This document shows, piece by piece, positions 25,102 to 57,054 of a stretch of DNA of 64,000 nt (positions are counted from its first letter, which is position 1; the number at the start of each line of letters is the position of its first letter). This stretch comes from an uncultured virus (IMG/VR IMGVR_UViG_3300025648_000023) (lineage: Duplodnaviria; Heunggongvirae; Uroviricota; Caudoviricetes), in the IMG/VR virus record IMGVR_UViG_3300025648_000023. The stretch is one strand, 5' to 3'. The translations under genes were made by a program, and so were the position numbers. The notes below the pieces were generated by a model, which saw nothing but the letters and a program-made list of their open reading frames with translations, did not search any database and was not told the DNA's origin.

Positions 25102-25745
25102 TAAACAATTATAGTGAAATTATATCTTACAATGAGGGGTATGATTACTTCGAGCAATTTCTTAGAAATAGGTATTTGTGGGAAATATTTAAACCGTTAT
25201 CAGAAGATTTCCCCGTTGCAGAAGTTTTTGTAGGGGTAGTTAAGTTTATCTTATACGGGTTTTCTTTGGAAAGTGAAATGCTTAATACAGGGGGGATTTC
25301 TTGGGATAACTTAGCTAGGAGGATATTTACAAAAGTAGGATTGCCCGAAGTATATTATGATGAAGTTGCAAAGCTAAGAAATGATAATTTAAGGCTAAGT
25401 ATTGATAGGTGGATTAAGTTACAGAATGATGATAACTTTGCCCAATATGTTGCATACAGGGGGTTAAGGTCACAATTCCTTTCAATAATGTCTTTGCCCG
25501 AACCTAAGATTAAAAATGATGATGGCACTACCGATTTGGATGCTTATGCTAAGATAAAATCAATAGTAGATGGCAAAATGGCAGCAGCAGAAAACGCAAG
25601 GGAATTAATGAATATGATGAATGAAGCTAAGTCGTCTTTTATTCAAAACCACGCAAAACTAAAAGTAAGTGTTGGGGCTGCAAACGAAATGTCAATGCAA
25701 AAAAACACGGCTTCGATAGAGGACTTTATAAATAGTAAGAGATAA
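25098..25745 (+). CDS. hypothetical protein, possible terminase small subunit
   Basis: Helical 215-aa ORF translationally coupled to TerL. Confidence 0.4.
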   Translation: MINNYSEIISYNEGYDYFEQFLRNRYLWEIFKPLSEDFPVAEVFVGVVKFILYGFSLESEMLNTGGISWDNLARRIFTKVGLPEVYYDEVAKLRNDNLRLSIDRWIKLQNDDNFAQYVAYRGLRSQFLSIMSLPEPKIKNDDGTTDLDAYAKIKSIVDGKMAAAENARELMNMMNEAKSSFIQNHAKLKVSVGAANEMSMQKNTASIEDFINSKR

Positions 25746-33420: not shown

Positions 33421-35901
33421 ATGGACTTATTTGCTTCGGAGTGTTACAAACAGCTTAATCCAAATAAAAAAGATGCAAAATGGTTTAACGATGTAATAAC
33501 TATATTCAGACGAGATTGGGTACAGTTAGTCAATCGTGAACGTGCTATTGAAAATAGACAGATACTATTTTCACAGCAACCAATGGACAATGTAAAGGCT
33601 TTTTTTAGCGATAAAGAGTTTTTAGAAAATACCGATTTCGTTCCTTTGGGAATTTGGGGGCGTATATTCAATATCATCTTGGAAGAATTGCGAAGCGACC
33701 CCCCCGAAATAACAGTAAGGGCAAATGATGAATCAGCAATGATGGATAAGCAAGCAGATATTAAAAGATTGTCTACTTTTACCCAACATCAAAAAGCAGT
33801 ATCTGAATTAAATTCAAGGGTAGGATTACCCCCTTTGCCAGCAGACGATACAAAGTTTAAGACCAACATAAAAGAAATGCTTTTATACGGGTTAGACCCC
33901 AATGACAAAGAAGATATAGACTTCTTTCATAGGAATGACTTTATCCGATTAAAGCAAGAAATCGCCGCTAACAAAGTAATAAGTGCCGTACTAAATGTAA
34001 ACAACTACGACAAAGAAATATTAGAGGACAACGTTATAGACATTCTTAGCACAAATACTTGTACAGTACATAAATATGTTAGCCAAACAACAGGGGAACA
34101 AAAGATACAAAGGATATTCCCCGAAGAAGTATATGGCATATTTGGCAATAAACGTGATGGCTCTAGGGATATTTGTAACGGGTGGGTACAGAATGTCCCA
34201 TTAAGGGATTTTATCGCAATGGCAGGTCAGGATTTCGACTTTGAAAGGGATTGGTATCAATTACTATGGGCTTTAAATTTCAGCAACAACAGCACCTACA
34301 CTGGTTTTACACAGGGGAATAGGGAATACAACGGGAAACATCACCCAAATTACGAAAGCGATAAAGACTATTTCTCACAAGCGCAAGGTTATAGTGGGGA
34401 GTTTGGGGGCAAATTCCTTTCTTGGGAACAAGCCTATACTTATAATGTCCAAGTGGGGTATATAGAGTTTTGCTCGATAGATGCCACAAAGTCATACCTA
34501 TCAAAAAAAGATAAGAACGGGAAAGAAATAGAAGTAGGCAAGATTGTCCCTTATGGTTATGACTTAGACGACAAAGAAGTTACAGAAGGGTATGTAGTAG
34601 AAAATATCACTAACGAGCAATTTTATTATAGTTACTTTTTACCGACTACAAGCATCTCCCAATGGATATATAATTTCGGCAAAGTAATCTATCAAGATAC
34701 ACAAGGGGTAAACGATGAATATTCTTGTGGGAATATGATAGTTTACCGTAAAGAAGGTGCAAGCGCAGTAGATATATCCAAGACGGATATTTTCAAGGCA
34801 AACCAAGCGGCTTATAGGATATTATGGTTGCTATCAAAAGTACAGCCTAACAAAGAAGATTACGATTGGGATGAAGTAATGGAGTTGGCGCAATTATTCA
34901 AAAGGGAATACCAACAAGACAATGAAGATTCCCCTATCTTTTCAGTAGGGAATATCTTAGAGGATATAGTAAAGGTTCAAAAGCAATCACACGTTAGGAT
35001 TAGGGTAAGACCTAGAATAGATGGCAGAAAAACCCAAGACTATCATAGAATAGAAGTACAGCAACCCCGTGACCTACAATCAATGTGGATAGAATCAATA
35101 GAAAAAACAGCCATTGAAAACATTGCCCAAATGGTAGGGCTTAATGATGTAAGATTAGGACAAGTACAAAATGCAAGAAAAGGCTTTAAGGCTTCCGAAA
35201 TGGAAACAACCCAAAGCGAAAAAAGCACAGGGTATATATTTAGGATAATACAGTATGTAAAAGAACGTATATGTACTAGGATACTAAACACAACCCAAGA
35301 TGCAATAGCTTTTGAAGATAGTTTGGCTTGTGATTGGATTAGGTCAATAATAGGGGAATTACAGTTCAACAACTTGAAAAACCTAAAAGACTATGCAGAT
35401 AAAAACAAGGCAGCACATAGATTAGGGTTATATGTAGGTAACTACATTACAGCTATGGATAGACAAAAGGTTATCCAAGCAGCAGATATGGCATTGGCTA
35501 ATCAAGACGGCAAAGGTGGAATAGAATTAAACGAATGGGGAATTATTACCCGTGAAAAAGACCCAAGACAAGGGTTAGCATTATTAGAGCAATATCGTGA
35601 GAAAGCAAGAAAGCGTACAAGAAAAGAAAAGTTGGAAGAAATAAAAATGCAGCAAGACCACCAAAAAGAAATGCAAGCAAACGAAGCTAAAATGCAACAA
35701 GCAAAAGATGCAGCAGATATTCAAAAGGCTCAAATCCCTGCACAAGCTATGGTACAAGTTGCACAACTTAACAATAAGACTAAAGAAGATATTACAGATA
35801 AGAAGATAGAAAACGAACCTGCAAAACAACAGACAAGAACGGCTAACCAAAAAGACTTAGCTACACACAAATCAGATTTGCAGCAACAAGAAAGTTACTA
35901 A
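33421..35901 (+). CDS. portal protein
   Basis: 826 aa; ITVRAND, IAQMVGLNDVRLGQ and a Q/A-rich C-terminal coiled-coil barrel; lies between terminase/muzzle and capsid genes. Confidence 0.8.
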   Translation: MDLFASECYKQLNPNKKDAKWFNDVITIFRRDWVQLVNRERAIENRQILFSQQPMDNVKAFFSDKEFLENTDFVPLGIWGRIFNIILEELRSDPPEITVRANDESAMMDKQADIKRLSTFTQHQKAVSELNSRVGLPPLPADDTKFKTNIKEMLLYGLDPNDKEDIDFFHRNDFIRLKQEIAANKVISAVLNVNNYDKEILEDNVIDILSTNTCTVHKYVSQTTGEQKIQRIFPEEVYGIFGNKRDGSRDICNGWVQNVPLRDFIAMAGQDFDFERDWYQLLWALNFSNNSTYTGFTQGNREYNGKHHPNYESDKDYFSQAQGYSGEFGGKFLSWEQAYTYNVQVGYIEFCSIDATKSYLSKKDKNGKEIEVGKIVPYGYDLDDKEVTEGYVVENITNEQFYYSYFLPTTSISQWIYNFGKVIYQDTQGVNDEYSCGNMIVYRKEGASAVDISKTDIFKANQAAYRILWLLSKVQPNKEDYDWDEVMELAQLFKREYQQDNEDSPIFSVGNILEDIVKVQKQSHVRIRVRPRIDGRKTQDYHRIEVQQPRDLQSMWIESIEKTAIENIAQMVGLNDVRLGQVQNARKGFKASEMETTQSEKSTGYIFRIIQYVKERICTRILNTTQDAIAFEDSLACDWIRSIIGELQFNNLKNLKDYADKNKAAHRLGLYVGNYITAMDRQKVIQAADMALANQDGKGGIELNEWGIITREKDPRQGLALLEQYREKARKRTRKEKLEEIKMQQDHQKEMQANEAKMQQAKDAADIQKAQIPAQAMVQVAQLNNKTKEDITDKKIENEPAKQQTRTANQKDLATHKSDLQQQESY

Positions 35902-39503: not shown

Positions 39504-40451
39504 ATGACAGAAGTAGCCACAGCTAAACCTTCTAGCAAAAAGAAAGAAGTACAGGTATTAATCTTTGAAAGTACTATTAAGGGGGATAGCGGATTTAGGA
39601 GAGAAATCGCCCCCAATGTAATGTCACAAAAGACAGAAGATGTAAAGTCTTTCCCTAGTGTGATTTACCTTCCTACAATTAGTTACAAGTGGGATGAAGA
39701 AGGGAATCAAATCCCAATTAGGTATGTAAAAGGAATCTATGAAAACGAGATTACCAAATTACAAGCCAAAGGCATCCAAACTAGAACCAATGAAAACGGG
39801 GAGTATATCCCTAGTGGGGAGAAAATAAAGATACCAAACGGTATCCTAGTTCTTAAAGACGAAGGTGACAGGGGGATGTTTTCTTTTATGAGGGATTGCG
39901 CCTTTAACGAGAATGCAACAAACAGACCTGATGGGGATACATCAAAGAAGTTCTTTAAAGTAATTGAGCCTTTGAAAGACGAGGAACAATTTAACGACAG
40001 GTGGATAGTAAGTAACAAGGCTATTGGGTATGTTGCTAACTTAGTCAAGAAAGAAGGGGGCAAAAACGTTTACCAAACAACTAAGATTGATACATTGTTA
40101 TCATTGTTCAATGCTTACGGTGGCGATACATACTCACAAAAATTAACAGTATTGGCAGGTATGGCAAGTGCAGACCCCGAAACGTTCCTTAATACTATTA
40201 CCACTTTGGATGATAATGTAACAACATTGATTGTCCACGCAAAAGAGTTGCAAGTTATAAACATAGGGGCAAATACAGCCTCATTTGTTGACGACAATAA
40301 GGTATTGGCTAATTACGAAGGTAAAAATTTAAGCGAAAAGACTAAGATTAAACAAATCGCAGAATTGCTTAAAACACCTGAATATGCAGCTAAATATCAA
40401 GAGTTGATTGCAAAGGTTGACTTAAAAGAAAAACAAGTTTCAGAAAATTAA
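39504..40451 (+). CDS. conserved virion-module protein downstream of MCP
   Basis: IRYVKG..., IKIPNGILVL and FFKVIEP; position typical of crAss-like head modules. Confidence 0.5.
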   Translation: MTEVATAKPSSKKKEVQVLIFESTIKGDSGFRREIAPNVMSQKTEDVKSFPSVIYLPTISYKWDEEGNQIPIRYVKGIYENEITKLQAKGIQTRTNENGEYIPSGEKIKIPNGILVLKDEGDRGMFSFMRDCAFNENATNRPDGDTSKKFFKVIEPLKDEEQFNDRWIVSNKAIGYVANLVKKEGGKNVYQTTKIDTLLSLFNAYGGDTYSQKLTVLAGMASADPETFLNTITTLDDNVTTLIVHAKELQVINIGANTASFVDDNKVLANYEGKNLSEKTKIKQIAELLKTPEYAAKYQELIAKVDLKEKQVSEN

Positions 40452-40463
40452 ACAATATAAATT

Positions 40464-41195
40464 ATGATACAAGCGTTAGTATTAAGAAAAGGGAATCAGA
40501 TTGATTTCGTGAAATCCCAACTAATAGGTTCTTTACAAGAAATTGCTACCCCTTTAGAGGGCGGTCACTTAGACGGCGATTATTATGCAGTTCCTGTTAA
40601 TGAGGGGTTTGTTTCCGATTACGACTATATCCCTTATAACCTTGCAGACAGCCCTAATCAGCCATTACCATTGTGGGGTATCCCTGTATTCAAATTGTCT
40701 ATGACTAATAGTTCAGACAGTTGGATAGTAGTAGGTACTTCTGCACAATATGTAACTGCTTCCAATGGGGGTACTGCATTGCCAACTACAACTGCATACT
40801 TGAATGGTTCAGCCAACCCTTACAATTCTGTTTATTACATTCACGGGGCTGCAACGCTTTATGGGGTACAAACAGTATATGGTGCAGATGTAAACGGTAA
40901 CACAACAGTTAATCTAGCATTGCCTACCTTGTCAGGTAGCTTGCAACTATTCCCTTTTGCAAACGTGAATGGTACAGAAGCATATCCTACTGCATCAATA
41001 GCAGGTACAACTTATACAACCCCTGCAAACCTATTGACATTTGCAAATGCACATTGGACTACAATCGGTTCTACTACTTTCACTTGGGCTTTAAGTTCTG
41101 ATAACCTTACCTTGATTGGTACGATTACAAACTTTAGTGCTACCACTCCAATAGTATTTGGTGGTGGTGTGATTGCGGTGAACCCTGCACTTTAA
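40464..41195 (+). CDS. putative capsid decoration/structural protein (paralog A)
   Basis: T/G/S-rich beta protein similar to the next ORF. Confidence 0.55.
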   Translation: MIQALVLRKGNQIDFVKSQLIGSLQEIATPLEGGHLDGDYYAVPVNEGFVSDYDYIPYNLADSPNQPLPLWGIPVFKLSMTNSSDSWIVVGTSAQYVTASNGGTALPTTTAYLNGSANPYNSVYYIHGAATLYGVQTVYGADVNGNTTVNLALPTLSGSLQLFPFANVNGTEAYPTASIAGTTYTTPANLLTFANAHWTTIGSTTFTWALSSDNLTLIGTITNFSATTPIVFGGGVIAVNPAL

Positions 41196-41214
41196 TAGTA
41201 AATAAAAGTAATTA

Positions 41215-41994
41215 ATGTCAACACCTGCTCCTTATATTTTTGGTAATACCGTTGCGGCGTGTGTCTTAAACGAAAACGGGATAGACTTCCTTGATAGGGT
41301 AAACGGTCTATCCTGTTCTCCAAAGGCATTGTATGTTCCAACAAAGGCATCTGATTTAAAGTTTGATAACTACGATAGATGGGCTGTACCTATTTCAGAT
41401 AATGGTGTTTTTACGGGGTTTGATTACAATACATTAAGGACGGGGCAATATTACTTAACCCCACCTACCGTAGATAGCCTTCCTTGTTTCTTAATTAAAG
41501 AACCTAGAACATCTAAGTATTGGTACATATTTGGGGAATTGACAGATTTGATGGCAGCAGCTAGTGTCCAAAGTGGGGGTACGGTTATATTGATGCAAGG
41601 TATTGTACAAATAACAGACCCATTTAATTCACCTAGACAAATTTTTGCAGTTGACCCTACATTGTTCCCTAAAGTAATTATACCACAAGTAAGTATCAAT
41701 CAAACAAATGATGGGACTATTACTTACTTTGCGGCAGGGGTTAATTACACAACCGTAGCGTTGCCAACACTAAGTGATTCTTTAAAATATTTCCCACAAG
41801 GGATTATCAATAACGTGTTTCTTCCAACAGCACCAACTACATATTCTACACCCGCAGCATTGTTGACATACTTAAACGCAAATTATACAAACGGGGGTGA
41901 AATTACTTGGTATCTTGATTCGACTAATTCAACATTATTCGCAACAGGATTTACTTTGGGGGATAACTTTGGTACAGTAATAACAGCCGTGTAA
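41215..41994 (+). CDS. putative capsid decoration/structural protein (paralog B)
   Basis: Shares ALPTLS.SL..FP and Y.TPA.LLT..NA..T with 40464-41195. Confidence 0.55.
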   Translation: MSTPAPYIFGNTVAACVLNENGIDFLDRVNGLSCSPKALYVPTKASDLKFDNYDRWAVPISDNGVFTGFDYNTLRTGQYYLTPPTVDSLPCFLIKEPRTSKYWYIFGELTDLMAAASVQSGGTVILMQGIVQITDPFNSPRQIFAVDPTLFPKVIIPQVSINQTNDGTITYFAAGVNYTTVALPTLSDSLKYFPQGIINNVFLPTAPTTYSTPAALLTYLNANYTNGGEITWYLDSTNSTLFATGFTLGDNFGTVITAV

Positions 41995-42029
41995 ATAGTT
42001 GCCCATTGCGCTGTGGGTGGTGGGTAATA

Positions 42030-42065
42030 GGGCGGCTGATTTTCGGTTCGCCCTTTTTGTTTTTA
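42030..42065 (+). terminator. intrinsic terminator after the capsid genes
   Basis: GGGCGGCTGA-ttt-TCGGTTCGCCC hairpin followed by TTTTTGTTTTTT. Confidence 0.7.
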
Positions 42066-42077
42066 AAAATTTAGAAT

Positions 42078-44672
42078 ATGTCATTAGTAATAACAAATTC
42101 TCCCGATATAGGTCTTTTAAGGGTAGCCGTAACTTTTGATTTGACACAAAATGTTGATTCAAATGGCAACGTACAGCCAACCCCTAAAGTAAAACTACAA
42201 AATCTTAGTACGGGAACAAACCTACAAAATGTATCATACGCATTTTTGGTAATATCACCTTCACAAACAATCATACATAACGGGGATATTAGTAATCCTG
42301 ATATTGTGGGGGTTTGGTATAATACGGTATTGGACGATAGATTCCCTATGCCCGCAGGTAATATAGAATTTTCCCCTGTACCTTTTACATTTCAAGTAAC
42401 TTGTCAGGATAGTGTAGGGAATATATATACCGCCCCTGTACAAAATGCTACAATAATAAGACCAAATGGGAATACTACTGCTTCGCAGGATATGACAGGT
42501 TTGGCATCTACAATAGCAACGGTACAATGTAGCCAACAAAGCGTTTTATTCCAAGACCAAACAAATTATGGTTACAATGGTTTGATAGGCACACAAATAT
42601 CATCTACACTAAGCCTTAAATATCCTTTGGATGGGACAGGGACAAGCCCAATCCCTTTTGTGGCTAATAATTATGCCGTATGTTCTGCCCCACTTACAGT
42701 AAGTTCAGATGCTTATGAATTTGTACAAAACTCTATTTACAATTACGCATACGGTAATGATACTTATGTAACCATACTTTACTTCCAAAGAAAGACATTT
42801 GCTGCATTATGTAATATTGACCTTTCCCCTTTAGTATGTGAAATAACTAAATTAGAGGATACTATCAGATATGGTACTTGTGTGGATATATCTGCCGCAA
42901 GAGACCAATTAATGCAAATTAATAGCCTTTTTATACAAGTAGTAATTGGCTTATGGCAGCCACTTACGGGCGTGGATGTCCCTGCAACTATTGAAAAGAT
43001 AAAACGTATTGGTAAATTTTCTTGTAATTGTTATGGCATTGGGTCAGGGATAGTTACGGGTAAAAATGCAATATCAAACGGAATAAACTACATACTTAAT
43101 CCTAGTGGGGATATAACAGGGTCTTATTCTGCAACAGGGAATAACGTAACCCTTACAATAGGAGATATTACTTATCTAGTGGCAGTTGACCCTTCAAATG
43201 AAGATGCTTATTCTTGGAGTACTTCTGTTTCGGGAGACCAAAAGACATACACTCTAAAAGTAAACGAAGCAGTACTTGCACAAGATTTGGTTAATGCTAT
43301 TTTGGCTAACCCCAATTTGATAAACCAATTAAACCAAAGCAGCAACTTTGATATAATAGTAGACGGGAAATGCGTATTCAATAGTAGTGTAGCAAATAAC
43401 TACACTTTCACATTGTCCAATATCCCAACAGGGGTAGGTGTGTATGCAATATTGACTTCTTTCCAACTACAAAGCGAAAGTATCCTTACTAACTTTACTT
43501 TCAATACTAATAACTTACCTGCACTACAAACATATCTTAACACTTTAGGGATAGGTACTTTTTCAGTAAGTGGGGATTCCCCCGCAGATGGCACTATTCA
43601 TATAGTATCTAACACTAATCCTAATGTAATCATAGGGCTTAACTATTCAGTTGCTAGTTCTAATTATGCGGCTACATTTACTAAGACAAGTGGGGGGTAT
43701 GTTCCTATCCCTGCACAAACAGTAATACAGAATATAATCAATAAAATCTGTACACTAGATACTAGCGAAGTATTCACATCCCAATCTTATACCGTTCCTG
43801 CTTTAAATAATTCAACAGGATTAGAGCAAGATATAGTAGTAGCACAAGGGGGTGAATTAGATATTTACATACAAGCGGTAAATACTGCTTTAGGTAGTTT
43901 AGTTTCTTATTCTTTAGGGAATAAAGGAACAAATTGTAATGTAGTCAAGGGGGTTTTTGGTACACCTGCAAGTTCTGTTTTATCTACTGATATATTGTTA
44001 GGTGTTTTTGCTAATGCGTGCGGGTTCGCAACTCCCCTACAATTAGCAAGGGCTATAATGGCAATAGGTATCACAGATACACAATTCTTGAATAATTTTT
44101 GCATAGCATCGACTATTTGTGCAAATACAACAAGTTGTCCACTTATACTTTCTTTCTTATATAATATTTCGGGGACACATTTGAATATTACCAAGTTGGC
44201 TTTTGACACAATACCTACATCAGCACAAACAGTAACAGTCCTTTATCGTGTTAGTGGACATTCCCCTGCATATCCTTATACAACATATTCTACCGCAATA
44301 ACAGTAGGTAGCAATGGGTATTTAGTTACACCTGTAAGTATTCCTGTTACGGTGGGGGTTACTTACGATATTCAAGTATTGCAAAATTGTTCAAGTCCTG
44401 CAAGCGGAGTAGAACAAACAATATTAGTTACGCCACCATCAATAGCGACAGTAGTACAATTAGGTACAGTACTTACAACGGCGGTTTGTAGCCAACCTTA
44501 TACCACCATTTATACGACTTCTTCTTTTGCTAGTGGGGTTACACTATATACAGATAGTGGCACATCAATACCTATTTCAAACACTATTACAGCAGTTGCA
44601 TTAGGGGATGGTACTATATGGGCAGTAACAAATGCGGTAGTAGGTGCATTACAATCAATAAATTGCCCTTAA
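42078..44672 (+). CDS. structural protein (tail hub/fibre-like, with Ig/Fn3-like C-terminal domain)
   Basis: 864 aa, T/S/N-rich with Cys pairs; VLYRVSG...TYDIQVLQNC is Fn3-like; no signal peptide. Confidence 0.55.
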   Translation: MSLVITNSPDIGLLRVAVTFDLTQNVDSNGNVQPTPKVKLQNLSTGTNLQNVSYAFLVISPSQTIIHNGDISNPDIVGVWYNTVLDDRFPMPAGNIEFSPVPFTFQVTCQDSVGNIYTAPVQNATIIRPNGNTTASQDMTGLASTIATVQCSQQSVLFQDQTNYGYNGLIGTQISSTLSLKYPLDGTGTSPIPFVANNYAVCSAPLTVSSDAYEFVQNSIYNYAYGNDTYVTILYFQRKTFAALCNIDLSPLVCEITKLEDTIRYGTCVDISAARDQLMQINSLFIQVVIGLWQPLTGVDVPATIEKIKRIGKFSCNCYGIGSGIVTGKNAISNGINYILNPSGDITGSYSATGNNVTLTIGDITYLVAVDPSNEDAYSWSTSVSGDQKTYTLKVNEAVLAQDLVNAILANPNLINQLNQSSNFDIIVDGKCVFNSSVANNYTFTLSNIPTGVGVYAILTSFQLQSESILTNFTFNTNNLPALQTYLNTLGIGTFSVSGDSPADGTIHIVSNTNPNVIIGLNYSVASSNYAATFTKTSGGYVPIPAQTVIQNIINKICTLDTSEVFTSQSYTVPALNNSTGLEQDIVVAQGGELDIYIQAVNTALGSLVSYSLGNKGTNCNVVKGVFGTPASSVLSTDILLGVFANACGFATPLQLARAIMAIGITDTQFLNNFCIASTICANTTSCPLILSFLYNISGTHLNITKLAFDTIPTSAQTVTVLYRVSGHSPAYPYTTYSTAITVGSNGYLVTPVSIPVTVGVTYDIQVLQNCSSPASGVEQTILVTPPSIATVVQLGTVLTTAVCSQPYTTIYTTSSFASGVTLYTDSGTSIPISNTITAVALGDGTIWAVTNAVVGALQSINCP

Positions 44673-44675
44673 TAG

Positions 44676-45473
44676 ATGATAGATTCATACGACTTATATC
44701 AAGATTTATGTTCGGAAGCCAATACGTTTCAAGGGGGGTTTATCCCCCCTGCTACGGTATTCATAAGGCATCTTAATCTTATTAACTATGAGTTATGGGA
44801 AATGGGATGCCGTGAATCAGAAAAAAGCCAAGAATGGAGGGATAATATGCGCCCGTTTTTAGTTTCTCAAAATATCATAACAAACCCCGCTACATCATAC
44901 TACACTACTGCTAATATACCTAAAGACTACGGAAGGTTATTCAAAGCAGGGATGATAACAGTAAAGACAGATGATAGTGTAATAACAATCCCCAACGATA
45001 AAGTAAACAAAGGATTGTGTTACAAAGATGAAGATAATCAAGAAGTAACTCCGCCTGCACAAAGCATTAATGACTACTTAAATAGCATAAGAGAAGTAGA
45101 TATTACAGAGGTAGACTTACAACGTTGGGATGCTTGTTTAAACCACGAATTTGAAGATAAAAGACCTTCAATGAGTAAACCTAAAATGGTACAGGTAAAC
45201 GGGGGATTCAACGTAGCCCCTAGAGATGTAAGCGTTGTTGTCCTATATTATTTTAGATTGCCAAAACAAGCTACATTTGCATACACAACAACAACCCCCA
45301 ATTTAAACACGGGTGCAGGGGGGCAAATAGTTTATGATTCAAAAAATAGCCAACAATTAGAGTGGGGGGTAAACCTTAAAAACGAATTTGTTGGAAGATT
45401 ATTAGAGAAGTTTGGAATAGTTACTAGAGACCAATTTATAGAACAATACTCATTGCATAGAAATAAAGGATAA
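44676..45473 (+). CDS. tail ring protein (crAss-like tubular/adaptor)
   Basis: NTFQGGFIPP..F, RPFL, IPKDY and LYYFRLPK motifs. Confidence 0.6.
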   Translation: MIDSYDLYQDLCSEANTFQGGFIPPATVFIRHLNLINYELWEMGCRESEKSQEWRDNMRPFLVSQNIITNPATSYYTTANIPKDYGRLFKAGMITVKTDDSVITIPNDKVNKGLCYKDEDNQEVTPPAQSINDYLNSIREVDITEVDLQRWDACLNHEFEDKRPSMSKPKMVQVNGGFNVAPRDVSVVVLYYFRLPKQATFAYTTTTPNLNTGAGGQIVYDSKNSQQLEWGVNLKNEFVGRLLEKFGIVTRDQFIEQYSLHRNKG

Positions 45474-46271
45474 ATGATTTACCCAAATGTTACATATCAA
45501 ACCTTAGCGGCTCTATTACAAGACACGAATACTATTTGGATACCAAATGGGGTTGGGGATATAACGGGTATTTTTGGTAATGCACAGATAAATGGGTTGG
45601 CTAAATTTATCCAACAATCCCCCCTTAATTGGAACGGGGCTAAAACTATAACAACAGGGGGGGATATAACATTATCAAACGGGGTAACGGTAATAAGTGG
45701 CATAACCCCTACTTCTATCACTTTTGGGGACAATGTATATAACGAATGGATTATAATAAACCTAACAGGGGATGATGTGAACCTTGCAAGCGGTAAAGTC
45801 TACTATACTTCTTTTGGTGAACAACTTAATTATATCCCTGCAAATCAGGCTTTAAGGATAAGCAAAGGGATAAACTCACTATGGTATCAATCCAATAACT
45901 TTACATCAACTAGCGGCAGCGGAAATACCGTATTCAATGAGATAGATGCAATAGTAGGAGTGGATTCCCCCATTATAATTCCTGCAAACGCCACTACATA
46001 TACTATAAATTCTGCTAATATAGCAACTAAATCAGTAAAGGTATATATAGACGGCACAAGAATATTTCCAAATATTGTAGGGCAACTTAGCGTAGATATA
46101 GTTTATACCCCTACCTTTGTCACAATTACATTCTTTAACTATTCCATAGATAACCCAACAGAGAACTTAGGATTACAATATGGGATGAAAGTAATAATAG
46201 ATTATGCGATTAGTAGTGGGGGGAGTTCGGTAGATACATTTGATAATACATTTGACAATACGTTTAGTTAA
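45474..46271 (+). CDS. tail-associated structural protein
   Basis: IPNGVGDITG N-terminus, SVKVYIDG, and a C-terminal DTFDNTFDNTFS repeat. Confidence 0.55.
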   Translation: MIYPNVTYQTLAALLQDTNTIWIPNGVGDITGIFGNAQINGLAKFIQQSPLNWNGAKTITTGGDITLSNGVTVISGITPTSITFGDNVYNEWIIINLTGDDVNLASGKVYYTSFGEQLNYIPANQALRISKGINSLWYQSNNFTSTSGSGNTVFNEIDAIVGVDSPIIIPANATTYTINSANIATKSVKVYIDGTRIFPNIVGQLSVDIVYTPTFVTITFFNYSIDNPTENLGLQYGMKVIIDYAISSGGSSVDTFDNTFDNTFS

Positions 46272-46287
46272 AAATTAAAATAGATAT

Positions 46288-47346
46288 ATGAAGAAAGTTA
46301 TTTTATTAGTTTTGTTGGGGCTTGTTTACTTTGAGGGGAAATCCCAATTAACGGATGCTCAATTAATAGCACAAGCAGATACAATAAAAAATGAAACAAG
46401 GGCAGGGGCAAATACTGCGACAAGGGTTGGAAGGATGTTTGAAAACATTATCTACAACAAGATAAATAATTCAAAATTTATTGATAGTACTAAAATACCT
46501 TATTTGGCTAAGAATAATAATTTTACAGGCAATAATACTTTCCCCAATATAAACGTAAGTAACAATAACGATGCAAGTGGGTTATCAGTAAATGGGGACA
46601 TTACTACAATAGGAGATATTAATAATAATGATGCAGGAACTGCCCTATCAATAGACGGGCATTATAATACATTGACAATAAATGGTCTTTTGGGGTTTAC
46701 TAGCGGTCAATTAATATCATCAATATCTACCGATACCGCAATGACAAGTTATTCAAATGCAATATTGCCCACACAAAACGCAGTAAAGTCTTATGTTACA
46801 AATCACACGCCTAATGTTAGTGGTTTTCAAACTGTTTCTAATTTATCAAATTCATTAATTAGCGATAGTTCTAGTACAACTAAATATCCAACAGTTCAAT
46901 CGGTAGGTAGATATGCACAATCTTTAAGCAACCTTTCAAATAACGTCACATCAGACAGTGCAAGTACAACCAAATATCCTAGTGTAAATGCAGTAAAAAG
47001 ATATGTTCAAGCAAATTCATCATCATTGCCATATACAGAGTATGCTTGCTTGATAACACAAACATCTACTTCTGCACCTACATTAACAGTGTTGTCTAAT
47101 AACACGGGGGGGACTTTTACAGCAACAAGGGTTGCAAGCGGTTATTATACAATAACATTTTCAGGCGTAACTACTACAACATCAAAGATGTTCCCTATAA
47201 TTTCATGCACCAATGCGCAAGGGTTGATAGTTAGTGCTTATTCTCAAACAAGTACTACTATAACTATTCAATCTCTTAATTTAAGCGGGATACCTACTGA
47301 TGGTATAATGACAAATACTCCATTTTTTATTAGATTTTACCCTTAA
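46288..47346 (+). CDS. tail-fibre-like protein with Sec signal peptide
   Basis: Signal MKKVILLVLLGLVYFEGKS|Q; IKNETRAGANTATRVG motif; two 30-aa STTKYP repeats. Confidence 0.65.
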   Translation: MKKVILLVLLGLVYFEGKSQLTDAQLIAQADTIKNETRAGANTATRVGRMFENIIYNKINNSKFIDSTKIPYLAKNNNFTGNNTFPNINVSNNNDASGLSVNGDITTIGDINNNDAGTALSIDGHYNTLTINGLLGFTSGQLISSISTDTAMTSYSNAILPTQNAVKSYVTNHTPNVSGFQTVSNLSNSLISDSSSTTKYPTVQSVGRYAQSLSNLSNNVTSDSASTTKYPSVNAVKRYVQANSSSLPYTEYACLITQTSTSAPTLTVLSNNTGGTFTATRVASGYYTITFSGVTTTTSKMFPIISCTNAQGLIVSAYSQTSTTITIQSLNLSGIPTDGIMTNTPFFIRFYP

Positions 47347-47364
47347 TAAATAACAATTAAATAA

Positions 47365-48546
47365 ATGAAGATACTATTAACTATATTATTAAGTTTGTTT
47401 TTGGTAGGGGGATTTTCGCAATCACTTCCTAATTGGCAACCCGTACAGAATGCCCCAATGAATTATTATCTATGGTATGGACAAAAAGATAGTGTTTATA
47501 TGTTTTCCCCTAAAGACACTTTTAACGCACGTTATCCAAGTATGGTAATGAGAAGTGACGGTACTATGTGGAAAACATTAGGAGGTAGTGCTAGTTGGAC
47601 TTCTTTAGGTGGCGGGGGTGCTAATGATAGTTCTTCTAATTTTTATTTGAAAGATACTCTTTACGCACACTACGATACCCTTTTTTGGATGAAGGGGACT
47701 AACACTTATTATACTAGGATAGATACTTTTTCGGCAAACCCAACTTTGTATGGGGCTTCTTTTGGAAAGTATGTGGCAGGGAATACCCCTATTTGGAAAG
47801 GGTTAACAGCTAGAGAAGCTATACTAGATGCGATAACACAATGTAATCACCCAAATTACGTTTCTCCAAATGCTACTATATCAGCAAGCCCTTCATTTGG
47901 ACAATATGAATATGGGACTAATTTAGGGACTATTACGTTAAGTAGCGGTTTTAGTCAAAATAACGGTGGTACACTTTCAAGTACTACTTACACAGCAAAC
48001 GGCACTCCACTAGGGGGGAATACATTTACTATATCATCCCTTACAACAACTAATACTGCCTTTGTAAATAAGGCATACGGGCAAGGTGCTTGTATAAATA
48101 ATAACTGTGGTCAATTAGACTGTACGGGTAGAATAAATGCAGGTAGTGTAAATAGCGGGACAAGTAATTATACTACAGGGTATAGACGTTATTATGGTTG
48201 GATTTTAGATACAACGGGAATAACAACTGGCGGGCAAGATTTAGCAATAAGGTCAGTTATAGATATTACTCAATTTAATACATCTGCCGTTTTCGGTAGT
48301 TCTATATCCCCAATAAGTACGGGGAATCCTCCAAGTGGGTCTGCTTATTACATATTTGGGTATGTTAGTTCAAGCCCTACAATGAGCGATATAGTAATAA
48401 ACGGTACACCATTAGGGATAAACGCCTTTAATGTTAATGTAAGGTCTAATTTTACTAATTCACAAGGCGCAACAGTATCAATAAGGATATATTACAATAA
48501 GAATAAGCAGTTTGGCTCTTTTTCAGTTTATACAACATCTAATTAA
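47365..48546 (+). CDS. fibre/appendage-like protein with Sec signal peptide
   Basis: Signal [32 protein letters not shown] and FTNSQG phage beta-domain motifs. Confidence 0.6.
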
Positions 48547-48548
48547 AA

Positions 48549-50807
48549 ATGAAGAAACTAATATTTATAATAATTTTATTTATAGGCTTTTTATGTAAAG
48601 GTCAAGTTGTATATAATGGTCTAGGAGGATATGTCCCCAATGGTAACTATGCAGGGTATTATGCTACATATATGCAAGGTGCAACTAAAGTGTACTATAA
48701 CCAAACTGCAATGTTTAATGATTCTGTAAAGGCTTATTTACGAGATACATTGACATATATGGCTTATACCAAAGCAGATAGTTCTTATTGGATTTTAAGT
48801 GGTGGGATTGCAAATAGTAACTTTAAAAAAATATCCCAATTTAGCAGCGTGCCACCAACTGCAACAATTAAAGGGGTGGGTAGTATAGGTAATATAGCGT
48901 ACTTTAATGGGACAACACAATTAGGCTCTACAAACAATCTTTCAATAGATACCCCTAGTGCGACGACATATTATTACATAGGTAAAACAACCAAAAACAA
49001 TTATATCCCACTAAGCACAGACCCTTCTAATCCTAGTGTCGGAATATCGGTTTATTCAAAGACTAATAATGGCTTTACAGAACCCTACTACATAGATAGT
49101 CTTGGCAATTCAAGTAGGTTAAGTACAGTAGGTGGAAGTAGTAAAAATACGGGGACGGGGATTTCCCCACTAACGCCCGTTTGCCTTGATTCAACATCTA
49201 GCATAGCAAAAGCAAAAGGTAGTAACCCTAGATACCCCCCTTTTGCAATATCTTTAGATTCAATACCTAATAATGGATATGGAAGAATAGTTTATAACGG
49301 GGGGATAGTAACGGGGCTTAATTTAAGCATATACAATGCAGGACAAAACGTTTATCTAGGCGATAACGGGGGAATATCACCAAATCCCTCTACATTATAC
49401 CCTGCAATAAAATTAGGGGTAGTTACTTCTAATACTTTAGGTTCAATGCTAGTAGCAATAGGTAACGTTCCTAAAGATAGTTTAAACACACAAACTTACG
49501 TTCCTTACACAGGGGCTGTCTCTAATGTCAATCTCGGCACGAATAATTTGACAGCAAATAATTTAACTACTACCGCTGTCGTATCCTCAATACTTAAAAC
49601 AAACAGTTCTGGTACATTAGTAGCGGCAACGGCAGGTGCATCAAACGACTATTTAGCAGGAAGTAGCCTATCTGCAACTCGCAACGTTTCAACAGGGTCG
49701 ATATTCACTTACAACAGTTCAACGGGGGCTTATAATTTGGATACGACTAAATTGAATAATAGTGTAAGTTCATTTTTGAGTGGTTCTATTTTATTTGCTC
49801 AAAATGGGAATATACAACAGGATAAAATAAATTTTTTTTATGATTCTACTAACTCAAGGTTGGGAATAGGTCATATTTATTCAAACTATACTAATCTTAT
49901 TCCATTTATGACTACTAACACTGCACCAAGCCCGTTTGTAGCTAGTGCAACTAATTTATCCAGTACAAGTGCATATCAAGCATTTCAAGGTACTCTTTCT
50001 TCTGCTCACCTTTCATATCCTGCATATCTTACTATATATATGGGTGGTAGTCAACCTATATCTGCTTATTCTTATACACCAGCAAGCTCTTGTAATACGT
50101 GTGCTCAATCTACATGGTCATTCCAAGGGTCGAATGATGGCACTACTTGGAATGTGCTTGATACTCAAACTAATCAAACTAATCAAACGGCTGGTGTATC
50201 TTATATATATAATTTGTCCTCAGTGGCAACCTATTCGTATTATCGTTGGTATGTAACGAATACCGTTTCTCATGGCGGACAGGCACAAATGGCGGGAATG
50301 TCATTGTATTACAATTCTGTTATTCATATTGCCCCTTTAGCAAAGTTGCATATAAATACGTCTGTTGCCACAGAAAAAGGGCAGATAATACAAGGCGTTG
50401 CTTCACAATCAGCCAACCTTCAAGAATGGCAGAATAGCGCAGGTTCTGTATTAGCTAATATTGATGCAAGTGGCAATATTAGTAATACAGGGACAATAAC
50501 TTCAACAGCAGCAATCACGGGGGCATCGTTTAATGCAACTGCAACAAAAACAACCGTCTCCGCCTCAACAAGCGGCACAGTAGTATTTAGTCAGCCATTT
50601 GCAGGAAGTAGCTACAAGAAAGTAATTATCTACTGTAATGCTGCATTGGGTACGGCTTCTTACACTTATCCGACAGCATTCACAAATACACCAACGGTAG
50701 TATCTACCAATGGATTAGCAACAAGTTTAGTCACAAGTATAAGCACCACAGCGGTGACAGTGACGGGGAGTTCGAGTAGCGGTTTTTTAATCATAGAAGG
50801 CTATTAA
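48549..50807 (+). CDS. tail-fibre-like protein with Sec signal peptide and discoidin (F5/8 type C)-like domain
   Basis: Signal [40 protein letters not shown] and QSANLQEWQ fibre motifs; [12 protein letters not shown]...YSYYRW discoidin-like domain. Confidence 0.7.
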
Positions 50808-50816
50808 AATAATATT

Positions 50817-51194
50817 ATGAAAAAGTTATTTATTGCAATCAGTTTATTTTTAGTTATTGGCGCAAAAGCGCAATTGGTACCCGTAGTGGATACGAGTTTT
50901 CACCCACATATAGACACCACTATTACGGGCATTACAGCGTGTCAGATAGTGCCTATCAAAGCATCGTTAAGCAATGATACTGCTACATTGGTAAGCATTT
51001 CAGTAATCAGTGACAATCTATCTAATTTGGCGAATATCAACTTCTCTTTTTTGAAGTCCGAACTTACCCCAATGAAAACAATCACTTTCACAGTACAAGG
51101 TCAAAACTATATAGATTGGAACAACAACGAGTATCTATTCAAGTTGGTAGCGACTTATCTCTCCCGTAGCGGCATTCAATTAACATTCAAATAA
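50817..51194 (+). CDS. small protein with Sec signal peptide (possible fibre chaperone)
   Basis: Signal MKKLFIAISLFLVIGAKA|Q; follows the fibre gene. Confidence 0.55.
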   Translation: MKKLFIAISLFLVIGAKAQLVPVVDTSFHPHIDTTITGITACQIVPIKASLSNDTATLVSISVISDNLSNLANINFSFLKSELTPMKTITFTVQGQNYIDWNNNEYLFKLVATYLSRSGIQLTFK

Positions 51195-51213
51195 TAAAAT
51201 CACAGATTAGACT

Positions 51214-51405
51214 ATGTTACACCACATTAAACAGACAGCAGACGGATTTGCAACACTAATAGGGGGATTAGGTTTTTTTGCAGTATCGGCAAATGTAGCC
51301 GATTGGACTATGAAGATTATCTCATTTGTATTGGGGTGTGTTGTATCCGTTTTTGCCATAATTTACTACTACCAAGCTATCCGTAAAGACGCTAATAAAA
51401 AATAA
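51214..51405 (+). CDS. small two-TM membrane protein (holin-like)
   Basis: Two hydrophobic segments and a basic C-terminus. Confidence 0.55.
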   Translation: MLHHIKQTADGFATLIGGLGFFAVSANVADWTMKIISFVLGCVVSVFAIIYYYQAIRKDANKK

Positions 51406-51481
51406 AGTGTGGATAATCAAACTTATTTATGTAGTTTTGTCTATGTATATAGGTTATTTAGTAATAGAAAATAAAAAACAA

Positions 51482-51709
51482 ATGAGCAAATTATTCAGCG
51501 TTGGACTTCAAGACTTTTTACACGGGCTTTTGATAGCCGTTATTGGTGCAGTATTAGCGGTTGTGACTAATACCTTACAGGCAGGTACTTTAACCTTTGA
51601 TTACAAGGCTATTGGTACAACGGCGGCTATTGCGGCACTAAGTTACATCAGTAAGAAGTTCTTAACTAATTCAGCAGGGCAAGTACTTACGAGTGAGCCT
51701 TCGAAGTAA
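51482..51709 (+). CDS. holin-like membrane protein
   Basis: DFLHGLLIAVIGAVL...AIAALSYISKKFLTN; an upstream in-frame GTG at 51407 would add a further TM segment. Confidence 0.6.
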   Translation: MSKLFSVGLQDFLHGLLIAVIGAVLAVVTNTLQAGTLTFDYKAIGTTAAIAALSYISKKFLTNSAGQVLTSEPSK

Positions 51710-51878
51710 ATTATGGTGCAAGTAAATGAATGTGGCATAAAAGGATTGCACAACGCATACGCACCTAAGCAGTGTTATAACGTTTCCAGAGACCCACATT
51801 TTTAACATCATTGCGGCTACATTGCCCCAAGTTCGCCCTCAAATCATACGGGGCTAGTGTCCGAGACACATTTAACCG

Positions 51879-51915
51879 CCCTCTATCTAACACAAGAACG
51901 ATAGAGGGTACTTTT
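51879..51915 (+). terminator. hairpin / possible terminator
   Basis: CCCTCTATC...GATAGAGGG 9-bp stem followed by TACTTTT. Confidence 0.5.
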
Positions 51916-51939
51916 AAAAACACTAGAAAATTAGAAAAA

Positions 51940-52323
51940 ATGAAAAGTAAAATTTTTAAATCGCTATTCAAAGTTGAAGGGTTTATTTTTGATGGGACAA
52001 ATGAAAAAGAAGTCAGGGATGGTTTATTAGAGTTATGCGATAAAAAATATTGTAAAATTAAAGACGCTAGCAGAGAAACAGTAGAAAGACTTCATTTTCA
52101 ACAAAACGCTATTATTGGTTTTAATACTTTCAATGGGGATATATCTTCTTTCCCATTAGAATACGAAGGAAATATTCAATTTGAGGAAGAAACAGCCACG
52201 ATAGATAAAACCGTTGAACCCCCCATAATAAATAATGATACTATTTATAAATCGGGAACAATGGACTTGAAAGAGTGGGTAACCCACAATGGCAAAATAA
52301 AGAAAATAACCATTGAATTTTAA
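51940..52323 (+). CDS. hypothetical protein
   Basis: ATG 51940 has an A-rich leader; the upstream TTG extension is unlikely. Confidence 0.6.
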   Translation: MKSKIFKSLFKVEGFIFDGTNEKEVRDGLLELCDKKYCKIKDASRETVERLHFQQNAIIGFNTFNGDISSFPLEYEGNIQFEEETATIDKTVEPPIINNDTIYKSGTMDLKEWVTHNGKIKKITIEF

Positions 52324-52330
52324 TACAACA

Positions 52331-52610
52331 ATGAAACATCTACTATTCTTCACTAAAGAAATAATCCTTACAGCGATAGTTTGTGTCGTGGGTTGGGTTA
52401 TCTCAAAATTTCAGTAATATGCAAATAGTAAAATATACATTAAGGATGTATCTAATGTTAGCTATATTCTCGTTTTCTTTTTGTGTAATGGGGGTTTATG
52501 ACAACCACGATATGACAATGTTGGATGGTGCTATTATGGGCTTTTTTATTACAATGGCATCAGATGGGATTTTATCACTAACTAAATATCGCCTCAATGA
52601 CACACCGTAA
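52331..52610 (+). CDS. membrane protein, possibly split by a frameshift
   Basis: A 28-aa TM ORF (52331-52417) followed by a two-TM ORF in the +1 frame ending at 52610. Confidence 0.4.
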
Positions 52611-53169
52611 AAAACACATAGAAGGATACAACTACTTATTTATAATGATAGTCTTTTTGGCTATGTTAGGGGCGTTGGTGGGGTGTATGTCCGACCGTAC
52701 AGCGTTGCAAAGAGTGCTCACAAAGAAACCTTTATTTGATACAACAGGTCAGATATATATGCAATTATACCCTTGCGATAATAAGGTGATAGCATCTAAG
52801 GCAGATACGATAATAAAACATGATAGTAGTATTAGTTACGAGCCTTACTACATTGATTGCCCCAATTTAAACAGTCACGATACAGTACCAAAGAAAATAA
52901 AGGTATTAATCCCAGTTAAAACTTACGTTAACAACACCCGTATAATTGACAGCATTACCCGTATAGACAACCAACAACTATCCCTTTGCAAATCGCAAAT
53001 ACAAGATAAGGACAAGCAAATAGCTATACTTAATCAATCAGTAACAGATAGCAGACTACAAGCAGCAGTAAACGAAAAGGATGCTAGTAAATGGGAGTTG
53101 TATTTCTGGCTATTGATTGCAGCGATAGTTATTGCGTTGGTATTGTATATAGTAAAACCTAGGTTATGA
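52597..53169 (+). CDS. unimolecular-spanin-like lipoprotein
   Basis: Lipobox ALVG-C after a hydrophobic stretch, a coiled coil and a C-terminal TM segment; located in the lysis cluster. Confidence 0.65.
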   Translation: MTHRKKHIEGYNYLFIMIVFLAMLGALVGCMSDRTALQRVLTKKPLFDTTGQIYMQLYPCDNKVIASKADTIIKHDSSISYEPYYIDCPNLNSHDTVPKKIKVLIPVKTYVNNTRIIDSITRIDNQQLSLCKSQIQDKDKQIAILNQSVTDSRLQAAVNEKDASKWELYFWLLIAAIVIALVLYIVKPRL

Positions 53170-53516
53170 CACTTAAACAACGCTACGAATCAGTCGCAAC
53201 AGCCTATTTGAACAAGTTTATTAAGAAGCAGGATATTGACTTCGATGGATGGGTAAGCGATGACATTGGGGGGATAGCTTCTTTCTGTTGTCAATACTTC
53301 TTCAATTTTGACGATATGCGCTACGATATAGACAATAATTGTGAAAAAGGATTAATATTAAGATGGCAAGAAGATGGAGTAGACTATAATATGAAAGCAA
53401 ATACAGACACAATAAACTATCATTCATATCACAAGGGATTGAGGTATGAGTATTTAAAAAAAAATAGTTATGAGGCAAGTAAATCAAGCTACAATAGACT
53501 TAATAAAACACTTTGA
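53166..53516 (+). CDS. hypothetical protein
   Basis: 116 aa; WVSDDIGG and INYHSY motifs. Confidence 0.6.
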   Translation: MTLKQRYESVATAYLNKFIKKQDIDFDGWVSDDIGGIASFCCQYFFNFDDMRYDIDNNCEKGLILRWQEDGVDYNMKANTDTINYHSYHKGLRYEYLKKNSYEASKSSYNRLNKTL

Positions 53517-53931
53517 GGGGTTTTCAGCAACTGCCTATCATGACAGTATAGATAAAATTGGCATCGACACAATTGGATATGGCAGCACAACTTACCCTAA
53601 TGGCACTAAAGTAAAAGTAGGAGACCCCACAATTACAGAACAACAAGCAATCGAATACTTAACCTTTGAAGTCAATCAAAAAGCAATAGCCGTTAGTCAT
53701 TTAGTCACATCACAACTTAACGATAATCAGTTTGGTGCGTTGGTGTCTTTTGCGTACAATTTAGGTGAAGGCAACTTATCCGAAAGCACTTTACTAAAGA
53801 AGGTAAACGCAAACCCAAAAGACCCCTCTATACAGCTAGAATTTGATAAATGGATATACTCTAACCATTTACCCGTTAAAGGTCTAGAAACACGCCGTAG
53901 GGCTGAATGGCAACTATATAACACGTTATGA
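53470..53931 (+). CDS. endolysin, GH24 phage lysozyme
   Basis: IKHFEG..AY.D...TIGYG, QFGALVSFAYNLG, STLLKKVN and GLETRRRAE. Confidence 0.95.
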   Translation: MRQVNQATIDLIKHFEGFSATAYHDSIDKIGIDTIGYGSTTYPNGTKVKVGDPTITEQQAIEYLTFEVNQKAIAVSHLVTSQLNDNQFGALVSFAYNLGEGNLSESTLLKKVNANPKDPSIQLEFDKWIYSNHLPVKGLETRRRAEWQLYNTL

Positions 53932-56349: not shown

Positions 56350-57054
56350 ATGAAACAATTATATTTACTTTTCAGTTGGTTACTAATTGTAGTCAACTGC
56401 CAAGCGCAACATACAATACAACTTAACCATAAGTACTATACGGTGCAATTTGATACGGTATTTTGTCAAGGGATACTAAACCACTACACTCAAACGATTG
56501 CGCACCATAATAGCACAAAATTAAAGCGTGAGGGTAGTTTATTAACCGAGTTCCATAAAGACCCGTTAATACCCTCTAAATGGCAAACGGTAAGTAAGTC
56601 CGACTATGCCAACTACAATAAACAATACAAGGGAGATAAACATAATACTGTTGACATTGGGCATATAATTCCGTACCAATCTATGTCTTTCGATAGTATA
56701 GCAGCAGAGGAAACAATGATGTTTTCTACTAATACAGCCTTTCAAATATCGTGGTTTAATGAGCAACAATGGAAGAATATTGAGGCGATAGTGTTTGATA
56801 GTATTGGCAGTAAGTATGATTGTGAAGTTTACACTGGGGTATTAATCAGCACTTCGCACCCACATAAATACAACCAAGTTTATATAGCGGATTATTATTT
56901 TAAAGTAGTCAAATTCGACCACTTTACTTTGGCGTGGTTAGGGTTAAATAGTCCTACTAATACAAGCACAAAGCCAAGTGATGCAGCTATTTCTATCGAC
57001 AAACTAAAAGCTATTATCTTACAATATTATCCTAGTTTACAGTTGGGGTTTTAG
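56350..57054 (+). CDS. secreted DNA/RNA non-specific endonuclease (NucA/Serratia-type His-Me)
   Basis: Signal peptide ending CQA|Q; FHKDP, DIGHIIP, FNEQQWKNIE, VYTGV and YYFKVV. Confidence 0.85.
   Translation: MKQLYLLFSWLLIVVNCQAQHTIQLNHKYYTVQFDTVFCQGILNHYTQTIAHHNSTKLKREGSLLTEFHKDPLIPSKWQTVSKSDYANYNKQYKGDKHNTVDIGHIIPYQSMSFDSIAAEETMMFSTNTAFQISWFNEQQWKNIEAIVFDSIGSKYDCEVYTGVLISTSHPHKYNQVYIADYYFKVVKFDHFTLAWLGLNSPTNTSTKPSDAAISIDKLKAIILQYYPSLQLGF

Follow-up and report, generated by a model that had tools for sequence, protein, structure and literature searches.

We analysed a 64,000-nucleotide stretch of DNA from an uncultured tailed virus (IMG/VR record IMGVR_UViG_3300025648_000023; referred to as the window throughout) and focused on four consecutive open reading frames (ORFs), here named A to D, that encode fibre-like proteins starting with candidate Sec signal peptides. 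An earlier note on this DNA had proposed that these proteins are exported and glycosylated by the bacterial host before they join the virus particle. The four ORFs lie where that note had placed them, all on the plus strand and separated by intergenic gaps of 2 to 18 bases, and the next gene starts 19 bases past D.

46288-47346, plus strand: ORF A, 352 amino acids; predicted signal peptide at nt 46288-46344
47365-48546, plus strand: ORF B, 393 amino acids; predicted signal peptide at nt 47365-47418
48549-50807, plus strand: ORF C, 752 amino acids; predicted signal peptide at nt 48549-48602
50817-51194, plus strand: ORF D, 125 amino acids; predicted signal peptide at nt 50817-50870, followed by a small beta-rich body; last gene of the cassette

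The A protein comprises an N-terminal helical domain (residues 20-66, nt 46345-46485), STTKYP-type repeats and a C-terminal beta-sandwich (residues ~245-352, nt 47020-47343). In its AlphaFold2 model (predicted local distance difference test [pLDDT] score 72.5, above 90 in the C-terminal domain), a signal helix and the helical N-terminal domain are followed by a middle of low model quality and by the C-terminal sandwich, which was modelled with confidence. In B, a variable N-terminal part precedes an Ig-like beta-sandwich (residues 165-273, nt 47857-48183) with two covarying cysteine pairs and a second beta domain; both beta domains were modelled confidently (pLDDT 79.8), and VIA-align assigned residues 165-273 to a generic Ig/FN3-like sandwich only (Z up to 8.1). 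C starts with a conserved module (residues 1-317), carries an F5/8 type C-like lectin domain (residues 473-557, nt 49965-50219) and ends in a domain (residues ~633-752, nt 50445-50804) that is common to signal-less proteins of other phages. The discoidin-like domain that had been suggested previously lies in C and holds with a qualification: its match to Pfam F5_F8_type_C (expectation [E] value 7.7e-6, 26.5 bits) fell under the 28.2 cut-off, with further matches to PHROG 17517 'tail protein' (residues 446-592 only; E 1.2e-21) and to PDB 7nsn_A (E 5.8e-13). Atlas look-ups for B and D returned leads below 0.9 only, those for D being small viral proteins without a family. The fibre-type peptide motifs quoted in the earlier note are present in A to D.

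All four N-termini share a basic n-region, a hydrophobic core of 12-15 residues, small residues at positions –3 and –1 and Gln at +1; one of them reads MKKLFIAISLFLVIGAKA|Q. The Sec-type signals ending small-x-small before Gln that had been reported for all four were thus recovered, with calls made by a heuristic of our own and inspection by eye. Among the 77 non-overlapping window ORFs of at least 50 amino acids, six have signal-like N-termini—the consecutive A to D, a spanin-like lipoprotein and a nuclease (56350-57054). In Bacteroidota, signal peptidase I cleaves before a Gln that is then cyclised, a preference known as the Q-rule (PMC5837995, PMC10653852).

The survey of homologs that the note had called for revealed that this architecture is kept. 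Every A–D homolog in the low-GC viral loci L002-L014, L018 and L019 retains a divergent signal ending before Gln, and a signal with +1 Gln was found in 40 of 43 B homologs and in all nine homologs of the N-terminal part of C. For D, the equivalent position is occupied by a homolog in L005 (62% identity) and in L002 (27%), and each of the two starts with a signal followed by Gln at +1. Across ~60 homologs, the signal sequence itself diverges freely, while the basic start, hydrophobic core, small –3/–1 residues and +1 Gln stay. None of A to D is a lipoprotein by sequence, since each has Gln at +1 and no lipobox; a Cys at –3 in C lacks a lipobox context and is missing from C homologs. Nor did A to D match a C-terminal sorting domain of the type IX secretion system (T9SS; TIGR04183/TIGR04131 type) in NCBIfam at E<=0.1, a search that a divergent domain could escape. 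With neither feature found, A to D, if exported, would be expected to stay in the periplasm.

The second shared feature is the motif D-[ST]-[AILVMT]. In soluble extracytoplasmic regions, it marks the general O-glycosylation of Bacteroidota, is enriched over chance in non-cytoplasmic proteins and is generally near-fully occupied, as outlined in a review of that system (PMC12871550). The counts given previously were reproduced exactly: 4 of 12 Asp residues lie in the motif in A, 4 of 13 in B, 8 of 17 in C and 2 of 5 in D (18/47 in total), compared with 3 of 37 in the signal-less control ORF at 42078-44672. The enrichment also withstood the shuffle test proposed at the time, as residue shuffles of the four mature proteins yielded a mean of 4.96 motifs (standard deviation 2.08, maximum 15) and none in 20,000 reached the observed 18. 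This excess is specific to the full motif, because four control patterns were not enriched in A to D: D[ST][not AILVMT] was seen 8 times against 7.3 expected, the reversed motif 5 against 5.0, N[ST][AILVMT] 10 against 16.1 and E[ST][AILVMT] 0 against 1.2.

The same partition extended beyond the four genes. Of the 72 Asp in the six signal-bearing window ORFs, 25 lie in the motif, compared with 37 of 1122 in the other 71 ORFs (odds ratio 15.6). Related viral-contig loci comprised 250 ORFs, 170 of them distinct; the 30 that our heuristic called signal-like, a few being doubtful small ORFs, hold 126 motifs in 413 Asp, as opposed to 100 in 1558 in the remaining 140. The nine homologs of C's N-terminal part, all signal-bearing, carry 72 motifs in 205 Asp, while proteins having only C's C-terminal domain are signal-less and motif-bearing at chance level (3/25 in the high-GC contig L015, 3/34 in L017). 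Individual sites are partly conserved: D183 of C is Asp in 10 of 10 proteins, with the full motif in 7, and D51 of B is Asp in 36 of 40, with the full motif in 27. Provided that the host possesses the system, we consider it likely from these patterns that A to D are O-glycosylated.

Family A offers a direct comparison of signal-bearing and signal-less relatives. Among proteins sharing A's N-terminal domain, seven signal-bearing members have 32 motifs in 103 Asp and 21 signal-less members 30 in 327. The signal-less proteins start M-(1-4 residues)-TDxQL, equivalent to the predicted mature start of A (QLTDAQL), and the signal reads as though it had been grafted onto A's N-terminal module. The genomic context of one signal-less relative (L022) was uninformative.

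Cysteines provided a further type of signature. Of 44 B-family proteins, 14 contain both pairs, 13 only C160+C248, 13 only C243+C253 and 4 lack the domain altogether; an unpaired Cys at any of the four positions occurs in none. Such strictly pairwise occurrence fits two disulfides in the B family, and we infer that these bonds form. In A, the pair C254/C307 recurs in 2 of 118 aligned C-terminal domains, both from close signal-bearing relatives and too few to weigh. A bacterial-genome scan with the B-family alignment returned 25 pattern matches, none of which was confirmed as a relative.

Could the hydrophobic N-termini be no working signals at all, with A to D being ordinary cytoplasmic fibres, the motif a by-product of composition or structure and the +1 Gln a coincidence or a matter of shared ancestry? 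Several points do weigh against our reading of export. At the homologous site A-D-[ST]-I-K-N-E-T of family A, D-[ST]-I is present in 7/7 signal-bearing and 0/21 signal-less members, a contrast that speaks for the link but may represent one evolutionary event, as the seven probably form one clade. The whole-library search with A gave 1483 matches at E<=1e-3, and among the best 149 of them (A excluded; 21 signal-like, 128 not), the motif share is alike in signal-bearing (62/617) and signal-less (215/2501) proteins (p 0.27), which goes against a simple signal-motif rule; several of these signal-bearing matches are very large proteins of different build. The signal calls come from a heuristic that also flagged a few unlikely small ORFs in related loci. 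Finally, fibres are Ser/Thr- and repeat-rich and can carry D-[ST]-hydrophobic units, as some B-family linkers do.

This cytoplasmic alternative nonetheless appears very improbable to us. The shuffles control for composition, signal-less members of the very same family differ from signal-bearing ones in motif share, the signal architecture and Gln outlast free sequence divergence, the spanin-like lipoprotein and the signal-bearing nuclease show the same motif excess, and the all-or-none cysteine pairs of the B family fit an oxidising compartment. Given that divergent homologs keep the +1 Gln signal, signal-less relatives start at the mature N-terminus, the motif excess tracks the signal and the cysteines covary, we hold with high confidence that A to D are exported by Sec and signal peptidase I in a Bacteroidota host. 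As all four combine a host-type secretion signal with an excess of a host sugar-attachment motif, they very probably mature outside the cytoplasm.

The fibre-like nature of A to D is supported at the domain level and by cassette swapping. In BFVD, B had 43 matches at E<=1e-3, among them proteins of Tenacibaculum phages and crAss-like phage proteins named 'tail protein/tail fiber'. A homolog of the A repeats (P0061) carries DUF5907 and Peptidase_S74, and a C homolog (P0209) ends in K1-lyase_C (E 1.3e-20). Signal-bearing homologs from other types of phage follow baseplate genes (L011) or lie among virion structural genes (L004). Counting against a fibre identity, Foldseek found no PDB match at E<=0.001 for A or B, and hence no significant fibre fold. 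Regarding swapping, comparison with a closely related sister phage delineated one stretch:

46805-51178, no strand assigned: hypervariable cassette, replaced or diverged relative to sister phage L002/L007 (blastn)

Identity to this sister is 98.2% over 40288-46805, and similarity returns at 51178 (92.8%). Within the swapped stretch, islands persist at 47336-47429 (98.9%; the B signal), 48547-49487 (81%; the N-terminal part of C) and 49623-49751 (87%). Replacement of such a stretch between 98%-identical phages is the behaviour of a host-range cassette. The N- and C-terminal modules of A to D are mosaically distributed among related phages; the proteins thus combine a conserved N-terminal module with exchangeable distal modules and vary between close phages.

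The sister phage L002 has a fifth signal-bearing cassette gene (11577-12338; 253 amino acids; Laminin_G_3, E 4e-20). The mature part of its product is similar to C-terminal domains found in virion structural proteins of T4-like cyanophages and of the Flavobacterium phage immuto; of these, only the immuto N-termini were examined, and they have no signal.

The cassette is flanked by a signal-less protein on one side and by lysis genes on the other:

45474-46271, plus strand: signal-less protein of 265 amino acids (p265b), directly 5' of the cassette; 0 of 15 Asp in the motif
51214-51709, plus strand: two small membrane proteins of 63 and 100 amino acids with hydrophobic segments, holin-like by position
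52597-53169, plus strand: spanin-like lipoprotein with a lipobox (LVG|C) and a C-terminal transmembrane helix in one chain, resembling a unimolecular spanin
53470-53931, plus strand: endolysin (phage lysozyme; Pfam Phage_lysozyme, E 4.4e-34; PHROG 7 endolysin, E 1.9e-42)

The earlier note had located A to D between tail genes and the lysis cassette. The downstream half of this statement is clear, with a lysozyme, a spanin-like protein and two membrane proteins; upstream, no ORF has a confident tail family, the sole family match being a weak one of 44676-45473 to PHROG 14543 'virion structural protein' (E 0.0079). Pfam and PHROG scans of 45474-46271 yielded no family match. In two other phage lineages, a counterpart of its C-terminal part (residues ~154-247) is encoded immediately 5' of signal-bearing clusters (L005:5459-5992 and L009:4541-5029; 45-46% identity in alignment A4, 54-61% by blastp over the conserved part). 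Complex prediction of this protein with the N-terminal parts of A, B and C scored 0.00 (mark 0.32), which gives no verdict either way.

The pair of small membrane proteins is kept beside the cassette in L002, L005, L009 and L010 and has no family match above threshold in Pfam or PHROG. The spanin-like protein, weakly similar to the Rz-like spanins of PHROG 1804 (E 0.0087), has 4 of 13 Asp in the motif; we used it as an in-window control for phage proteins exposed to the periplasm. Five distinct homologs from the related loci contain 4 to 7 motifs each, and a sixth, a 67-amino-acid lipobox ORF in L009, has 0 of 5; the spanin-like protein may itself be glycosylated. The endolysin is signal-less and yet has 2 of 8 Asp in the motif, making it the only signal-less window ORF with at least 5 Asp to reach a share of at least 25%.

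The window as a whole is part of a tailed phage genome, with a large terminase (25745-28081), a portal (33421-35901), GroEL, a 2945-amino-acid ORF and the lysozyme. The nearest record (G001) is the same phage at 100% identity, a 62.7-kb fragment estimated to be 51% complete. Searches of the phage collection with positions 44000-52000 (megablast) or with A, B and the signal-less relative P0078 (tblastn) gave no match, so that no close cultured relative was found; the sole match of C in this collection was the lectin domain of Bacillus phage G. Of the 85 phage records matching the terminase, 84 infect Flavobacterium (68), Cellulophaga (15) or Maribacter (1), which places the window phage near podoviruses of Flavobacteriia, as judged from this one protein. 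Q-rule and motif are described as Bacteroidota traits (PMC5837995, PMC10653852, PMC12871550), and the terminase relatives together with the Q-rule point to Bacteroidota as the probable host phylum. The host-type promoter consensus TTTG-N17-21-TAnnTTTG occurred 4 times, with 4.18 matches expected.

Some further genes of the window deserve mention. At 56350-57054 lies a gene for a DNA/RNA non-specific endonuclease (Endonuclease_NS, Pfam E 4.4e-21). Its product starts with a Q-rule signal, has 3 of its 12 Asp in the motif and is a candidate exported nuclease encoded by the phage. The segment 1880-4712 encodes a methyltransferase-like protein, then a GT11 domain (fucosyltransferase family, E 5.3e-16) fused to an unassigned domain, then a GT25 protein (E 1.4e-6); the target of these glycosyltransferases could be DNA, lipopolysaccharide (LPS) or the host O-glycan destined for the fibres. 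Two giant ORFs, at 13488-22325 (2945 amino acids) and 28099-32619 (1506 amino acids), lack family matches beyond weak thioredoxin-like and CarboxypepD_reg-like stretches, and the C-terminal part of the former has relatives in L005 and L009. The adjacent structural-region genes 40464-41195 and 41215-41994 are paralogs (31% mutual identity) without a family match.

Tailed-phage assembly is, in the textbook view, wholly cytoplasmic. A different course would accommodate the signals and their conservation, the motif excess, the covarying cysteines, the modular fibre-like build and the swapping of the cassette, all of which emerged from the comparisons above. Each of A to D would be made with a Sec signal peptide, cross into the periplasm and lose the signal through signal peptidase I, which cleaves ahead of Gln. 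In the periplasm, the proteins would fold, partly with disulfide bonds, and be O-glycosylated at D-[ST]-[AILVMT] by the host's general system. With no outer-membrane export signal detected, they would wait in the periplasm and meet the cytoplasm-built particles only once holin, endolysin and spanin open the envelope, attaching to them through their conserved N-terminal modules. Cleavage, glycosylation, disulfide bonding and virion attachment are steps that we infer. Overall, we lean towards A to D being a swappable host-recognition cassette that is exported, glycosylated in the periplasm and joined to particles at lysis; export is the strongly supported part of the interpretation as exported fibres put forward earlier, and the fibre nature holds at the domain level.

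The main rival concerns the last step. A to D might be exported and probably glycosylated without being virion parts, as fibre-derived periplasmic or envelope proteins that mask or bind a receptor or polysaccharide (mediating superinfection exclusion or shielding progeny from debris), act as adhesins or aid release. The secreted receptor-blocking decoys that the earlier note had named as an alternative belong to this rival. All of the export evidence fits such roles equally well, lectin-type domains such as F5/8 type C of the C protein and Laminin_G_3 of the fifth L002 cassette gene would suit envelope glycan binding, and the cassette always adjoins lysis genes, also in L005 and L009, where different genes precede it. 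In addition, tailed-phage parts are otherwise established to be made in the cytoplasm. On the other hand, the N-terminal module is the same as in the 21 signal-less relatives, and a free decoy would have no evident need for it; a late structural block with four to five large, modular, fast-swapped genes resembles a host-range cassette; neither a lipobox nor a T9SS C-terminal domain was detected that could bring A to D to the receptor-exposing cell surface; and analogous proteins of phage phi18:3 (see below) are annotated as virion proteins detected by mass spectrometry (MS). We deem a non-virion role unlikely, albeit deserving of serious consideration, and regard attachment to particles at lysis, by analogy, as the best reading, somewhat favoured rather than firmly held.

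Whether a sizeable group of Bacteroidota tailed phages finish their particles outside the cytoplasm in this manner, with exported, disulfide-bonded, host-O-glycosylated fibres docking on fibreless particles during lysis, seems to us an even bet. If fibres do mature in the periplasm with host O-glycans, virion assembly gains an at-lysis or post-lysis step, and the outermost parts of the virion would wear host 'self' sugars. Host secretion, disulfide and glycosylation machineries would then be infectivity factors and possible routes to resistance, and infectivity and host range would depend on when lysis occurs, on the folding factors of the periplasm and on the glycosylation locus of the host. 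Fibres made recombinantly in the Escherichia coli cytoplasm may, in that case, be misfolded or unglycosylated, which matters for host-range prediction and phage engineering in gut and aquatic Bacteroidota. Moreover, signal peptide plus sequon density would be a marker easily read from sequence, by which uncultured phages could be linked to hosts in the Bacteroidota.

Our literature search retrieved no paper on tailed phages whose tail fibres are exported by Sec or O-glycosylated by the host, and the available text of PMC6199706, PMC5723332 and PMC12014285 held nothing bearing on either. The nearest precedent for the signal is a set of five Porphyromonas gingivalis prophage genes with Q-rule signals and no assigned function, which Matrishin et al. 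2023 read as possible host-surface modifiers (PMC10367356)—an interpretation that speaks for a non-virion role. These genes resemble A to D in the signal before Gln, but that study did not recognise them as fibres, and the accessible part of the paper makes no reference to a motif analysis. For the O-glycosylation system, the known substrates are host proteins, and the word 'phage' occurs 0 times in the review (PMC12871550); here, the carrier would be a phage host-recognition cassette.

The signal-less A-like relatives P0100, P0194 and P0012 represent the ordinary cytoplasmic fibre type, with a conserved N-terminal module, variable distal modules and tips of lectin type, and signal-less relatives of A to D carry the motif at about chance (30/327, 3/25, 3/34 and 0/26). 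The last of these counts belongs to a 334-amino-acid protein of Tenacibaculum phage PTm5, a fold match of B. Together with the structural proteins of Flavobacterium phage immuto, which are likewise signal-less versions of related domains, and the Calle_1 and elemoE regions, in which no signal-bearing version of related domains was found, it tells against generality: cultured Bacteroidota phages with signal-less versions make the trait lineage-specific.

Outside the phage world, Bdellovibrio bacteriovorus makes trimeric MAT proteins that resemble phage tail fibres, carry signal peptides and sit on the cell surface (Caulton et al. 2024; PMC10769870). They demonstrate that signal-bearing fibres of the phage type can function extracytoplasmically. 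Unlike A to D, they are cellular adhesins on the predator's own surface, neither phage genes nor from Bacteroidota. We know of no sequon signature in these fibres.

The closest parallel comes from Cellulophaga phage phi18:3 (NC_021794.1; L037 6892-12584), a podovirus of Flavobacteriia (Pachyviridae) whose terminase is a distant match to that of the window. Like A to D, its gp085, gp086 and gp087 are large, consecutively encoded proteins with Q-rule signals, which end in FGYS|Q, GVSA|Q and GLNA|Q, respectively; the three genes immediately precede the lysis genes. Their N-terminal modules are common to PHROGs named tail fiber protein and pectate lyase. The record, which reportedly goes back to Holmfeldt et al. 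2013, annotates all three as virion, structural or tail proteins 'based on experimental MS/MS proteomics analysis', a kind of detection that can include co-purifying proteins. The parallel has its limits: unlike A to D, the three proteins are motif-poor (1/41, 1/49 and 1/41, compared with a naive expectation of ~3 each), arguing that export, if real there, does not alone bring the motif, and they have no blastp match to A to D at E<=0.01. Still, gp085-087 constitute the best support, by analogy, for a virion association of A to D, and phi18:3 growing on Cellulophaga baltica is a cultured system in which this association could be tested directly.

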